Source: Anaerolineae bacterium
GTDB lineage: Bacteria > Chloroflexota > Anaerolineae > Aggregatilineales > Phototrophicaceae
Length of the DNA: 28,874 bases
NCBI GenBank assembly: GCA_019912905.1
Contig: JAIOHO010000507.1
Location: 1 to 28,874 of the forward strand
Direction: 5' to 3'
The stretch's first letter is position 1; each line of letters starts with the position of its first letter. Below are positions 833 to 19,288 of the stretch, in pieces. The notes beneath the pieces were generated by a model. That model had not been told where the DNA came from, ran no database searches, and worked only from the letters and a program-made list of their open reading frames with translations. A program made the translations under genes and the position numbers.

Positions 833-3733
833 TCAGGGGCGATTCTGCTGGCGTTTGCGGCGGTTCTTCAGCAGTTCCTCGGCGACGTTTGCACCGCTTT
901 CAGGCTTGGTCTGGGAGGCGTGCGAAGGTTCATAATGCGGCCTGTCCGGGTCAGCCGGAATGGTCTCAGGCCCGGGTGCGCGTCCGGCGCGTGATCGCTC
1001 CCTGCTGGCCCGCAGCGCGCTTACGGTGGCGGTGGCGGATTCTTCGGCGCGCTGCCGCCCACGTTCTTTGGCACCAATCAGCGAGGACAGCCGTTCCGAG
1101 GGTCCTTCCGCGACTGCTGCCCCCCGGTTGCCGAACAATGCCAGGCGCGCGCGGCGCAGGTCACTGCGGGTGATGATCAGCCGCCGCTGGGCAATATCTA
1201 CCGGCAGCAGCAGCAGCGCGGTCAGCAGCAGCCAGGGCCACAAAGGGGTAAAGGCATTACGCGCCACCAGATTATGGACAAAAGGCAGCGCCGTATCGTC
1301 GCGCATATCGCGCCCGTTGGTCATCTGCGCGATCTCGTTGAGCAGATTCACGTTGGCCCCGCGCGCCTGCACGTCGTATTCTGCCGAGTAACTCAGCACC
1401 CAGCCGGTTGTCTGCCGAAGCTGGCGCGGGCTGCCGTTGAGGGTGCCCTGCCCACTGATGCCCAGGAAGTAGGCCCCTTCAGAACCCGGATCGAACAGCG
1501 CTTCATAGCGGCCCGGTGCGACCTGGCGCAGCTTCAGTTGATTGGCTTGCAGGGACGGATCGACGATACTGGCCTGGAGGTCCAACCCATTCAGGAAATT
1601 CCCGGCATCATCACGCGCATCCACCACCAGTCGGGCCTGTTCGCCTTCCAGCAGCACGCGCGATTCCAGGTTGTTCGACGTCCCTTCCGTGATGGTCCAG
1701 CGCACCGCCTGGCTCCAGAAACGGGTGAAATCTGCCCACGTCACCCAGTTCGCAGCCCAGCGGGATGTGGCATCACTGGTGAAGGCGACCGCACGCCCCA
1801 GGCCGTACTGCCACGATGCCAGCAGCGGATCGTTGAACGGCGCTGGCCCGCGCAAAATCACCTGGGCTGTCTGCTTGGGGGTGGTGGCGACATAACCCAG
1901 CAGAGGCGGAGCGCTGCGGATGCCATCCATGATCGGGCTGTTGGCCGTCAGCACGGGTACAAACGGATTTTCGATAATGTACGACCGGCTGGCAAGCACC
2001 GTCTCCTGCGTGAAGATCGAGGGAATCGTCTCGACCAGATCGACCACGTGGTAATTGCCGCCGCCCGCCTCAGCCATATCCTTCAGAAAATCCGCGCTGC
2101 CGCCGCCGATGGCAATCACCGAGGTGGTAATGTCCTGTTCGCGCTTCAGGGTATCGGCCAGTTCGACCAGATTCGCCGGGCTAGCGCCGCCATCCGTCAG
2201 CAGAATAATGTGTTTGCGGTTGGAGGGATCGTTGACAATCGTGTTGGCGACCAGGCGCATCCCGGCCAGAATATCGGTGCCGCCGCTGGCCCGCAGGCTG
2301 GCGACCAGACGCTGCAAACCCACCCGATCCAGCACCGGCTGAAGTTCGGCGATCCAGTACCCGACCGTATCAAACGATACCACCCCGGCTCGATCGGTCG
2401 GCTGTAAGAAATCAATCGAGCGAATGATGGCTTCTTTCGCCAGTTCGATATTGGCGATACCGTTGGGGCTGGGCACACCCATACTACCGGAGCGGTCGAT
2501 CACGTAGGCGATGGTCAACTGCGGCAGGCGCTGCTGGTCGCGGATCTGTGTATCCAGCGGCAGCGTATTTTCCAGCGGCGTGCGGAAGTAGCCGCCCGGC
2601 GCGTAGGAATTCGGCCCGCCGATGAAGACCAGTCCGCCGCCCAGGTCGCGCACGTAGCGGTCGAGCGCTTCCATGCGGCTGTTGGAAAGCTGTGTCGCCG
2701 GGACGTTCGCCATGATCACCGTGTCGTACTGGGCCAGCGGTGCAAGGCCGATCGGCAGTTCGGAGGGCCGGGCCAGATCGACCGTCACCCCGGCTTCTTC
2801 CAGCGCGGGCAGCAGATGTTCGACTTCGGCATCCGATTGACTGACCAGCAGCGCACGCGGCGGCCCGACCACCTGGGTAAAGGTCGAAAGCTGGTTGTTC
2901 TGGTAAAAACTGTCGTTATCGACCGGCTCCACCTGCACGTGAAAATCCTTGAAACCCGCCGCCGAACCGGGCAGAGTCAGCGTATAGCTGTTGGACCCCT
3001 GGCGCAGTTCCACTTCCTGGCGCTGGAGGATTGTTCCCGCGTCGAGGATCGTCACTGTTGCCGCGGTCGCTTCCTCGGCATCAATCGTCAGCGACAGGTC
3101 GAACGGCTGGCCCGCCGTCACGCTGCCCGGCACCGACAGGTCCGTGACCTGGACTTCCGGCCCCGGCTCACGCGCAAAGGCGACGAAACTGATCTCCACA
3201 CCCAGTGCAGCCGCCTGACGGACTGCCGCTTCGGTATCGCCCACAGTAGGTCGCCCATCACTCAGGACCACAATCCGCCGGGCCGCGTCACTGGGAAACA
3301 GGGCGATGCTGTGGCGAATGGCCTGCGCCAGATCGGTATTGCTGGTCACCGGCTGCGATTGCAGCGCCCCAAGTTCGCGCACCGCATTGACCGCGCGTTC
3401 TGTGCTGGGGTCCGCCCCAAAGACCACCACGCCAGACAGATCGTCCGGCCCCATGCGCTGCATGGCCTCCTGCACATAAGCCAACTGCGCGTCCTGCACG
3501 TCGCTCCCCAGGCTGTCAGAGACATCCACCAGAAAGATCACCGCCAGTTTATTGGCCGATTGGCTGACCTGCGCCCCGGCCAGGGCCAGCACCAGCAGCG
3601 CCATCAGCACCACGCGCAGCGCCACGCTGATCGAATCACGCACGCGGCGAAAACGCTGGCGCGGCCAGCCCAGGTAAATCACCAGGGGGATCGCCAGCAG
3701 GAGGACCAGAGCCAGAGGATAGGTAAACGACAT
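833..3733 (-). CDS. Membrane protein with two vWA domains, an Ig-like segment and a class I glutamine amidotransferase-like (DUF1355-like) domain
   Basis: N-terminal BatA-like TM segment (MSFTYPLALVLLLAIPL). vWA1: DVSDS...TDLAQAI...LSDG. GATase-like: YDTVIMANV...GGGLVFIGGPNSY. vWA2: DRSGS...TDILAGM...LTDG. C-terminal TM (LWPWLLLTALLLLPVDIA) and a basic disordered tail. Confidence 0.88.
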   Translation of the reverse strand: MSFTYPLALVLLLAIPLVIYLGWPRQRFRRVRDSISVALRVVLMALLVLALAGAQVSQSANKLAVIFLVDVSDSLGSDVQDAQLAYVQEAMQRMGPDDLSGVVVFGADPSTERAVNAVRELGALQSQPVTSNTDLAQAIRHSIALFPSDAARRIVVLSDGRPTVGDTEAAVRQAAALGVEISFVAFAREPGPEVQVTDLSVPGSVTAGQPFDLSLTIDAEEATAATVTILDAGTILQRQEVELRQGSNSYTLTLPGSAAGFKDFHVQVEPVDNDSFYQNNQLSTFTQVVGPPRALLVSQSDAEVEHLLPALEEAGVTVDLARPSELPIGLAPLAQYDTVIMANVPATQLSNSRMEALDRYVRDLGGGLVFIGGPNSYAPGGYFRTPLENTLPLDTQIRDQQRLPQLTIAYVIDRSGSMGVPSPNGIANIELAKEAIIRSIDFLQPTDRAGVVSFDTVGYWIAELQPVLDRVGLQRLVASLRASGGTDILAGMRLVANTIVNDPSNRKHIILLTDGGASPANLVELADTLKREQDITTSVIAIGGGSADFLKDMAEAGGGNYHVVDLVETIPSIFTQETVLASRSYIIENPFVPVLTANSPIMDGIRSAPPLLGYVATTPKQTAQVILRGPAPFNDPLLASWQYGLGRAVAFTSDATSRWAANWVTWADFTRFWSQAVRWTITEGTSNNLESRVLLEGEQARLVVDARDDAGNFLNGLDLQASIVDPSLQANQLKLRQVAPGRYEALFDPGSEGAYFLGISGQGTLNGSPRQLRQTTGWVLSYSAEYDVQARGANVNLLNEIAQMTNGRDMRDDTALPFVHNLVARNAFTPLWPWLLLTALLLLPVDIAQRRLIITRSDLRRARLALFGNRGAAVAEGPSERLSSLIGAKERGRQRAEESATATVSALRASRERSRAGRAPGPETIPADPDRPHYEPSHASQTKPESGANVAEELLKNRRKRQQNRP

Positions 3734-19288: not shown

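Follow-up and report, generated by a model that had tools for sequence, protein, structure and literature searches.

A conserved eight-gene ABC–MoxR–vWA set of Chloroflexota and its insert-laden copy in an Anaerolineae bacterium

The stretch of DNA analysed here, 28,874 nucleotides from an Anaerolineae bacterium of the family Phototrophicaceae (assembly GCA_019912905.1, contig JAIOHO010000507.1; hereafter the window), is the whole of contig C233 of a 6.28-Mb metagenome-assembled genome that is 88% complete. It carries eight core genes in two blocks on the minus strand, one with an ATP-binding cassette (ABC) transporter and one with MoxR, DUF58 and von Willebrand factor A (vWA) genes. Comparison with related genomes supports the two blocks as parts of one conserved unit. 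We put at roughly 0.6 the probability that this locus is an ancient Chloroflexota operon of eight genes in loosened form, in which two modules are joined to encode one membrane complex and the genes inserted at the junctions do not belong to the core. In what follows, labels with G denote genomes, with L loci, with f families and with C contigs.

Gene content of the locus

Genes were identified from a listing of open reading frames (ORFs), scans with Pfam and NCBIfam models, and transmembrane (TM) prediction (Table 1). Along the minus strand, from position 19288 to 833, lie the genes for an 841-aa exported protein, an ABC ATPase, a 117-aa protein, an ABC-2 type permease, a 614-aa membrane protein, a 690-aa GT-C (C-fold) glycosyltransferase, MoxR, DUF58, a PDDEXK_3 protein, a BatA-type vWA protein, a TIR-domain protein, and a 966-aa double-vWA protein. 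A GT87-like gene, convergent with the 614-aa gene and divergent from the 690-aa GT-C gene, occupies the plus strand, so the region cannot be a single transcript. Every gene that an earlier note on this DNA had named is found where it was placed, on the minus strand except for the GT87-like gene. That list had missed the 117-aa gene, which is hidden by an over-long permease ORF, and it had treated separately the PDDEXK_3 and TIR genes, which also lie within the blocks. Both Walker A motifs and the metal ion-dependent adhesion site (MIDAS) motifs DxSxS of all four vWA-type domains are intact in the window, whose promoter and terminator scans gave background level only. The junction between the 614-aa gene and the MoxR gene, where the two blocks meet, is referred to as the seam.

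Table 1. Core genes and inserts in the window, in minus-strand order (values after model names are E-values unless given in bits)
Feature	Coordinates	Strand	Evidence
Core gene 1, 841-aa exported DUF4350/DUF7408-like (GldG-like fold) membrane protein	16763..19288	-	Pfam, AlphaFold2 model
Core gene 2, ABC ATPase, 318 aa from ATG 16676	15720..16676 (ORF to 16709)	-	ABC_tran 3.8e-31
Insert, 117-aa gene between ATPase and permease	15365..15718	-	Pyrophosphatase match, weak, 6e-4
Core gene 3, 452-aa permease, probably of the ABC-2 type, start ATG 15360	14002..15360	-	Orthologue alignment and orthologue Pfam matches
Core gene 4, 614-aa seam protein, 3 TM and long helical region	12099..13943	-	Alignments, AlphaFold2 model
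Insert, 315-aa GT87-like membrane protein, putative GT-C	11151..12098 (likely start 11214)	+	GT87 3e-4
Insert, 690-aa PMT_2-type GT-C glycosyltransferase	9032..11104	-	PMT_2 4.1e-9, 37.3 bits vs cut-off 26.1
Core gene 5, MoxR AAA+ ATPase	7912..8934 (alternative start 8901)	-	AAA_3 2e-64, AAA_lid_2 6e-15
Core gene 6, DUF58, cytoplasmic vWA-like MoxR partner	6996..7898	-	PF01882 1.5e-34
Insert, PDDEXK_3 (GxxExxY) gene	6568..6954	-	PDDEXK_3 1.7e-35
Core gene 7, BatA-type membrane vWA protein, 638 aa	4599..6515	-	BatA PF07584 2.1e-18, VWA_2 6.6e-12
Insert, TIR-domain gene	3739..4593	-	TIR_2 9e-12
Core gene 8, 966-aa double-vWA membrane protein, 2 TM	833..3733	-	VWA 1.9e-23, GATase1_like 2e-15

The 841-aa protein of the window matches DUF4350 at 9.6e-5 (23.2 bits, below the cut-off of 30.4) and DUF7408 at 2.2e-4, and each of the two models matches in about 15–16 of 19 orthologues; both are folds related to GldG. 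None of the 19 orthologues matches the NCBIfam GldG model (TIGR03521) or ABC_transp_aux. In the AlphaFold2 model (pLDDT 83.8, pTM 0.83), an N-terminal signal/TM helix is followed by an immunoglobulin (Ig)-like sandwich, a GATase1-like alpha/beta domain (residues ~148–315), a TM hairpin (residues 352–406), and about 430 residues of beta-sandwich domains. Foldseek relates the alpha/beta domain to the GH42-type trimerisation-like domain of several glycoside hydrolases, with a probability of 1.0, and the remainder of the model to Ig/MG-type repeats. Solved structures match domain by domain only, none of them being a whole-protein analogue. The full-length look-alikes are AlphaFold clusters labelled "DUF4350 domain-containing"; in addition, an ESM Atlas cluster from Dormibacterota resembles the model (TM-score 0.72/0.74), a hint that the protein may occur outside Chloroflexota. 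The label GATase-like, given in the earlier note, holds for the structure; a catalytic amidotransferase reading is rejected, since no Cys or His is conserved among the 19 orthologues.

The ABC ATPase, with the Walker A sequence GPNGAGKT, scores 261 bits against the DrrA model (TIGR01188) and 236.5 bits against the GldA model (TIGR03522, cut-off 402.6), in both cases below the equivalog cut-off. The permease carries a family-specific N-terminal extension of four TM segments. Its window copy has no Pfam match at 0.01; six of 12 orthologues match ABC2_membrane_2/3, the best at 3.2e-12. A paralogue of the permease, 45–48% identical and with the same N-terminal extension, is solitary in many Phototrophicaceae genomes, with no ABC ATPase or other cluster gene within 10 kb (L060, L062, L063, L065, L067-L074, L077-L079, L081, L083-L091, L093, L094, and L096).

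The 614-aa seam protein begins with two TM segments, followed by a conserved cytoplasmic helical segment of ~78 residues, a third TM segment, and a helical rod; beyond a Q/G-rich stretch, the chain closes with a small motif that is conserved. Its AlphaFold2 model is helical with pLDDT above 90 for residues 1–400, and pLDDT is below 50 for the disordered, Q/G-rich residues 405–570. The protein has no Pfam or NCBIfam match, and a fold search gave no significant match in the PDB; membership in DUF4175 was rejected (TM-score 0.24–0.28, no Pfam match). The most conserved part is the predicted cytoplasmic segment between TM segments 2 and 3, with the motif ARxFD..F.L.ERLSTALEL, which would make the seam protein the leading candidate to connect the cytoplasmic ATPases with an assembly outside the cell. 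We note that in the congener G003 (L118; G003:C162:3820-5688 and 7476-8449) the 614-aa gene and the ABC ATPase gene are each in two or three overlapping ORF pieces, which could be frameshifts or assembly errors.

On the other side of the seam, MoxR is of the AAA_3 (MRP) type (PF07726, 215.8 bits against a cut-off of 27), with the Walker A sequence GVPGLGKT, and is one of four AAA_3 genes in the genome; a match of 48 bits to the bpMoxR model lies under the far stronger AAA_3 match. DUF58 begins 13 nt past the MoxR stop, carries DxSxS at residue 89, and has no predicted TM segment. The BatA-type protein scores 30.8 bits against TIGR02226 (cut-off 23), has the MIDAS sequence DASAS at residue 95, and contains TM segments at residues 3–21, 58–76, and 597–615, i.e., a hairpin of two TM segments, an ectodomain, and a C-terminal TM segment. 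In the last core protein, two vWA domains, with their MIDAS sequences at residues 70 and 413, accompany an Ig-like region and a GATase1_like domain, and the C-terminal part consists of a TM segment and a basic tail. The earlier note had called this side of the locus a Bat-type module, which agrees with the MoxR, DUF58, and BatA-vWA genes found; the BatC, BatD, and BatE genes are missing from it, as none of the eight core genes encodes a tetratricopeptide repeat (TPR), oxygen-tolerance, or SH3 protein of these types. The TPR gene downstream (3–686) was rejected as a BatC/E equivalent, its position being kept in just one other locus (L035). In Pfam scans of the core proteins, no effector domain, VMAP, iSTAND, FtsH, or beta-propeller was found.

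By TM prediction and the positive-inside pattern, the core proteins have their large domains outside the membrane. This predicted placement agrees with the vWA domain of the BatA homologue BB0173, which has been shown experimentally to be exposed to the periplasm (PMC5700661).

Conserved order, packing and co-occurrence

The locus was compared within three samples. The order sample holds 60 relatives within Aggregatilineales, with counts given out of 61 genomes; the phylum sample holds 301 Chloroflexota genomes, at least 90% complete except G000, of which the unpublished G323 enters the tallies only; and a locus search with the permease alignment as query against 185,579 species genomes returned 80 loci, of which ~45 hold the cluster and the remainder a lone permease paralogue. 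The intervening DNA was fetched from 12 genomes of the order and, outside the order, from 20 loci around distant 841-aa homologues.

Six or more core genes are present in 53 loci, and their order is identical in every one, without a single departure; these loci span Aggregatilineales and at least ten Chloroflexota families outside that order. The same eight genes, in the same order and on one strand, are found in 11 of the 12 fetched genomes of the order. The most compact versions, in G035 and G025, have no extra gene or just one, with gaps of 3–40 nt or overlaps. Beyond the order, the full eight-gene order is present in f24, f46, f54, f74, f29, f36, and f50, often with 4-bp overlaps at every junction, and f13 and f14 hold partial versions cut by contig ends or splits. 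The seam measures 60 nt or less in 26 of 54 loci; that of the window, 3,164 nt, is the longest, and in the congener G002 the blocks abut across 159 nt.

Presence of the two end proteins follows the same pattern. Within the order, 60 of 61 genomes have the 841-aa protein as a single copy, and all 61 have the 966-aa protein. Across the 301 genomes of the phylum sample (841-aa family at E≤1e-8, 966-aa family at E≤1e-30), both families are present in 105 and both absent in 150, the 841-aa family occurs without the 966-aa family in just one, and the 966-aa family occurs alone in 45. The genes for the two proteins lie 7–12 kb apart on one strand in at least 40 of the phylum-sample genomes, from at least 15 families. 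That the ABC block and the MoxR block form one unit, as the earlier note had proposed, is thus borne out by the constant order and by the co-occurrence of 105 genomes against 1. A full-text literature search found no description of the eight-gene operon. In a search of protein representatives, the family comprises 18,822 representatives at E≤0.001, and the matches listed are close relatives only.

Either half of the operon also occurs alone, and from this we take it to consist of a three-gene ABC module and a five-gene Bat-like module. ABC trios are solitary as shorter paralogous sets (L100, L102, L104, L106, and L110-L113). Families with the 966-aa protein that lack the 841-aa one have the MoxR side and no ABC trio: L138 (f47) holds the quintet of a 614-aa-like gene, MoxR, DUF58, BatA, and vWA, and L137 (f33) holds MoxR, DUF58, BatA, and vWA behind an unassigned 511-aa ORF.

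The operon is generally breaking up in the family of the window. Breaks fall at every junction, with no preference for the seam: exactly at the seam in G020, after DUF58 in G006 and G054, after the permease in G016, and after the ATPase in G031 and G034, while the 841-aa gene stands alone in G028, G009, and G033. On such splits the 614-aa gene remains with one block or the other, and all of the parts searched for are retained in the genomes with a split operon. This retention of parts without linkage speaks for a shared function that does not depend on co-transcription, and it also keeps alive the alternative of two independent systems weighed below.

Inserted genes at the junctions

The window copy is the most expanded one seen, with five lineage-specific inserts: the 117-aa, GT87-like, GT-C, PDDEXK_3, and TIR genes. 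The earlier note had wrapped the whole system around the two GT-C genes and read them as parts of an export and glycosylation machine; their distribution points the other way. A homologue of the 690-aa GT-C (E≤1e-10) is present in 28 of 61 genomes of the order and absent from 33. It occupies the seam in just four cases (the window, G001, G003, and G030), and is on another contig or far from the cluster, mostly by hundreds of kilobases, in G028, G054, G022, G009, G043, G049, G055, G053, and G041. The GT87-like protein (21.1 bits in the window, below the cut-off of 25) has relatives in six of the 61 genomes, two of which match GT87 (best 1.6e-8), and is found in none of three congeners. All of its known positions are at the same junction and on the opposite strand (L022, L027, L029, L033, L045/L122, and G026), a distribution consistent with a single old insertion that was lost many times. 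Only the window has both genes side by side, and G002, of the same genus, carries neither; the GT-C pair is therefore a coincidence of two separate inserts at one junction. Moreover, the genome contains 48 PMT_2 matches, so a GT-C neighbour is not rare by chance. Judged by gene neighbourhoods, the GT-C genes assort independently of the core and the two blocks do not assort independently of each other; the earlier proposal is thus partly supported, for the blocks and not for the GT-C genes.

A third GT-C-type gene of ~900 aa, unrelated to the other two (PMT_2 7.5e-4, below cut-off), lies between DUF58 and BatA in f2 and f8 (L011-L013). These same three loci (G050, G037, and G043) have a second ABC ATPase and permease between MoxR and DUF58.

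The 117-aa gene shares 56% identity with a 123-aa ORF that L024 has at this junction, and it is conserved there in the loci of six relatives. The PDDEXK_3 gene, which the earlier note had filed as a possible minimal mobile element, has homologues at the same junction between DUF58 and BatA in at least ten other Aggregatilineales loci of two families, f1 and f4 (L006/L017, L015, L018, L025, L033, L042, L044, L046, L053, and L080); it is either an old resident that is often lost or an element that targets this site. The TIR gene sits between the two vWA genes with gaps of 5 nt and is the sole TIR gene among the 53 cluster loci. In the congener G001, which lacks it, the BatA and 966-aa genes are 37 nt apart; the TIR gene is a very recent insertion and not a component of the operon.

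Elsewhere, a GNAT gene is inserted between MoxR and DUF58 in 11 loci, and the further inserts seen across loci encode an LTD protein, PP2C, a BglII endonuclease and its methylase, AlgX/SGNH-like proteins (two genes), a Na/H exchanger with a fused Usp, a pyridoxal phosphate-dependent enzyme, a major facilitator superfamily (MFS) transporter, PfkB, CNNM, DsbA, and a histidine kinase. From this heterogeneity (which includes the restriction-modification pair, MFS, PfkB, and DsbA) we conclude that the junctions accept unrelated cargo.

Two neighbouring genes upstream of the core are also worth recording. A calcineurin-like phosphoesterase gene (19435–20301, minus strand) lies just upstream of the 841-aa gene, is adjacent to it in several relatives too, and overlaps it by 4 bp in L032, L037, and L038; it may be an occasional ninth gene of the operon. 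Farther upstream, a 1092-aa REC/histidine-kinase-like protein (22499–25777, minus strand) has full-length orthologues (~750–1400 bits) in 19 of 39 loci of relatives (L020-L034, L036, L041, and L064), where they are likewise encoded upstream of the 841-aa gene and on its strand, with a gap of 106–378 nt in five of these loci. It is a candidate for a regulator of the operon.

A putative surface complex, its alternatives and its relatives

Taken together, the constant gene order, close spacing, co-occurrence, unbroken motifs, and predicted topology suggest that the operon products probably build a complex at the cell surface. Module 1 would be the ABC trio, i.e., the exported DUF4350/GldG-like accessory protein, the ATPase, and the ABC-2 permease, and module 2 the Bat-like quintet of the seam protein, MoxR, DUF58, the BatA-vWA protein, and the double-vWA/GATase1-like protein. 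Together they would form one cytoplasmic-membrane complex with its bulk outside the cell. To this bulk the 841-aa protein would contribute ~750 residues, the seam protein its helical rod, and the two BatA-type proteins their vWA/MIDAS ectodomains; the ABC ATPase, MoxR, and DUF58 would be the cytoplasmic members. The ABC trio may export, or mechanically drive, an envelope component, which the MIDAS ectodomains may bind or scaffold at the surface. MoxR AAA+ proteins with vWA partners remodel target complexes, as in NorQ/NorD and RavA/ViaA. Here, MoxR and DUF58 might assemble, remodel, or reset the membrane part of the complex, acting via the cytoplasmic loops of the BatA hairpin and the conserved cytoplasmic segment of the seam protein. 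A broader proposal, which we offer tentatively, is that of an undescribed envelope machine of Chloroflexota, and possibly of other monoderm-type phyla, in which ABC-2 and MoxR motors work on one extracytoplasmic GldG-like/vWA assembly and the seam protein links both sides.

Several observations weigh against a single complex. As either module is found alone, each can work separately; the ends of the operon are clearly unlinked in ~20 genomes of the order against ~16 in which they are linked, so that co-transcription is not required; and in f26 and f42 the 841-aa and 966-aa homologues are never adjacent, although these copies may be paralogues. The co-occurrence counts come from related genomes and hence overstate independence. 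In addition, the extracytoplasmic vWA domains are beyond the direct reach of MoxR, which makes the coupling step speculative. The first three of these points also favour a rival reading, in which a GldAFG-like ABC exporter and a Bat-like module are two independent systems, neighbours by history and uncoupled, and one of the ~20 splits, that in G020, does separate the operon at the seam. Still, we regard such independence as doubtful: order and orientation, with 4-bp overlaps across the seam, are kept in at least 15 families of the phylum, which is hard to explain without selection, only one of the 106 genomes with the 841-aa family lacks the 966-aa family, and the splits show no preference for the seam.

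Two further alternatives would draw inserted genes into the function. The two GT-C enzymes could be working parts of a machine that exports and glycosylates a surface protein or glycan, and in favour of this, the cluster has acquired three GT-C-type genes, unrelated to one another, in separate lineages (two at the junction of the 614-aa and MoxR genes and one at that of DUF58 and BatA), with AlgX/SGNH-like and GNAT genes also among the inserts. By a rough count, ~3 GT-C events fall among ~30–35 insertion events, compared with a background of ~1%, for a nominal post-hoc p of ~0.007. This excess is a hint of an envelope-glycan flavour and not evidence of membership. With the 690-aa gene mostly far from the cluster where it is present at all, the GT87-like gene rare and oppositely oriented, no GT-C gene in G002 or in most of the 53 cluster loci, and the junctions open to restriction-modification, MFS, PfkB, and DsbA genes, a role for the GT-C enzymes as parts is not supported; we consider it unlikely and the genes incidental to the core machine. 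Less likely still, the cluster could sense threats at the surface or serve in biological conflict, in the manner of the MoxR-vWA systems that Kaur, Burroughs, Iyer, and Aravind described, with the TIR gene as effector. MoxR-vWA modules are documented cores of conflict systems with TIR among their effectors (PMC7159879), a MoxR-vWA pathway of Actinobacteria senses epibionts (bioRxiv 10.64898/2026.09.08.750141), the TIR gene is tightly packed between two vWA genes in the window, and PP2C, FHA, restriction-modification, and PDDEXK genes are among the inserts or neighbours elsewhere. However, TIR is confined to one of 53 loci and is missing from the congener G001, no effector domain is fused to any core protein, and the core is housekeeping-like, single-copy, and near-universal in the order, compared with which defence islands are patchy. 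The AAA_3/MRP-type MoxR with DUF58 is a Bat architecture, and the conflict-systems paper (PMC7159879) makes no mention of Bat, DUF58, or ABC. A single complex encoded by the eight core genes remains our preferred reading.

Among known systems, the Bat-type (BatI) operons of Bacteroides fragilis, Leptospira, Borrelia (bb0170-bb0176), and Rhizobium leguminosarum (RL3499-RL3502) share with the window operon an AAA_3 MoxR, DUF58, a BatA hairpin of two TM segments fused to a vWA domain, a second membrane vWA protein, and an ectodomain topology like that of BB0173 (PMC5700661). They share as well an envelope-related, poorly defined function; envelope-integrity defects are reported for the Rhizobium operon, as cited in PMC5700661. 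Unlike them, the window operon has no conserved BatC/D/E TPR or SH3 genes, its second vWA protein is one of 966 aa with two vWA domains and GATase1_like, the seam protein is added, and an ABC-2 trio with the 841-aa DUF4350-like protein lies upstream and is translationally coupled.

A second likeness, by description and domains, is to the archaeal set of arCOG01314 (DUF4350, GldG-like), MoxR (COG0714), and vWA, predicted to be a secretion or membrane-remodelling complex (Makarova, Galperin, and Koonin 2015, PMC5898192). In that set, a membrane-anchored extracellular flavodoxin/GATase1-like DUF4350 protein is encoded beside MoxR and vWA genes, most components are predicted to be membrane or extracellular proteins, and the set is known by prediction only. 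The archaeal set includes S-layer-like Ig proteins, and no ABC transporter, BatA hairpin, or DUF58 is listed for it in the text consulted; its DUF4350 protein has a single C-terminal TM segment, whereas the 841-aa protein has a TM hairpin in mid-protein and the ~430-residue beta-sandwich part. In the Rv3689-Rv3695 region of M. tuberculosis, DUF4350, MoxR, and DUF58 are adjacent, and they are co-regulated in M. chelonae, according to a table in PMC8191103. Compared by description, this actinobacterial cluster is listed there with RDD and SpoIIM-like proteins, and not with an ABC trio or BatA-type vWA.

The trio itself resembles GldA/GldF/GldG of Flavobacterium gliding in having an ABC ATPase and a large GldG/GIFT-type, GATase1-like accessory protein, with a permease that is probably of the ABC-2 type. 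The window trio differs in that its ATPase scores below the GldA cut-off, the orthologues of its accessory protein do not match the GldG model, and it is coupled to MoxR and vWA genes; in the Pfam scans of the window, no gliding or type IX secretion system genes were seen.

Bat-type MoxR-DUF58-vWA operons are among the most widespread bacterial clusters without a mechanism, and GldAFG-like ABC sets are equally unexplained. The tight, phylum-wide fusion of both modules suggests that they serve the same cell-surface process; it points to the 614-aa seam protein as a candidate for the coupling, reduces the range of hypotheses, and singles out particular protein pairs. The loosening of the operon in the window, with inserts at its junctions, breaks in relatives, and all parts kept, separates the core parts from the passengers, and calls for caution that GT-C, TIR, and nuclease genes not be read as parts of the machine. 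In sum, the core is a solid uncharacterised system, and the GT-C genes around which it appears to be wrapped are incidental. Should the tentative proposal of an undescribed machine prove true, the operon would represent a new class of surface assembly or secretion system and would give the Bat-type MoxR operons a function.

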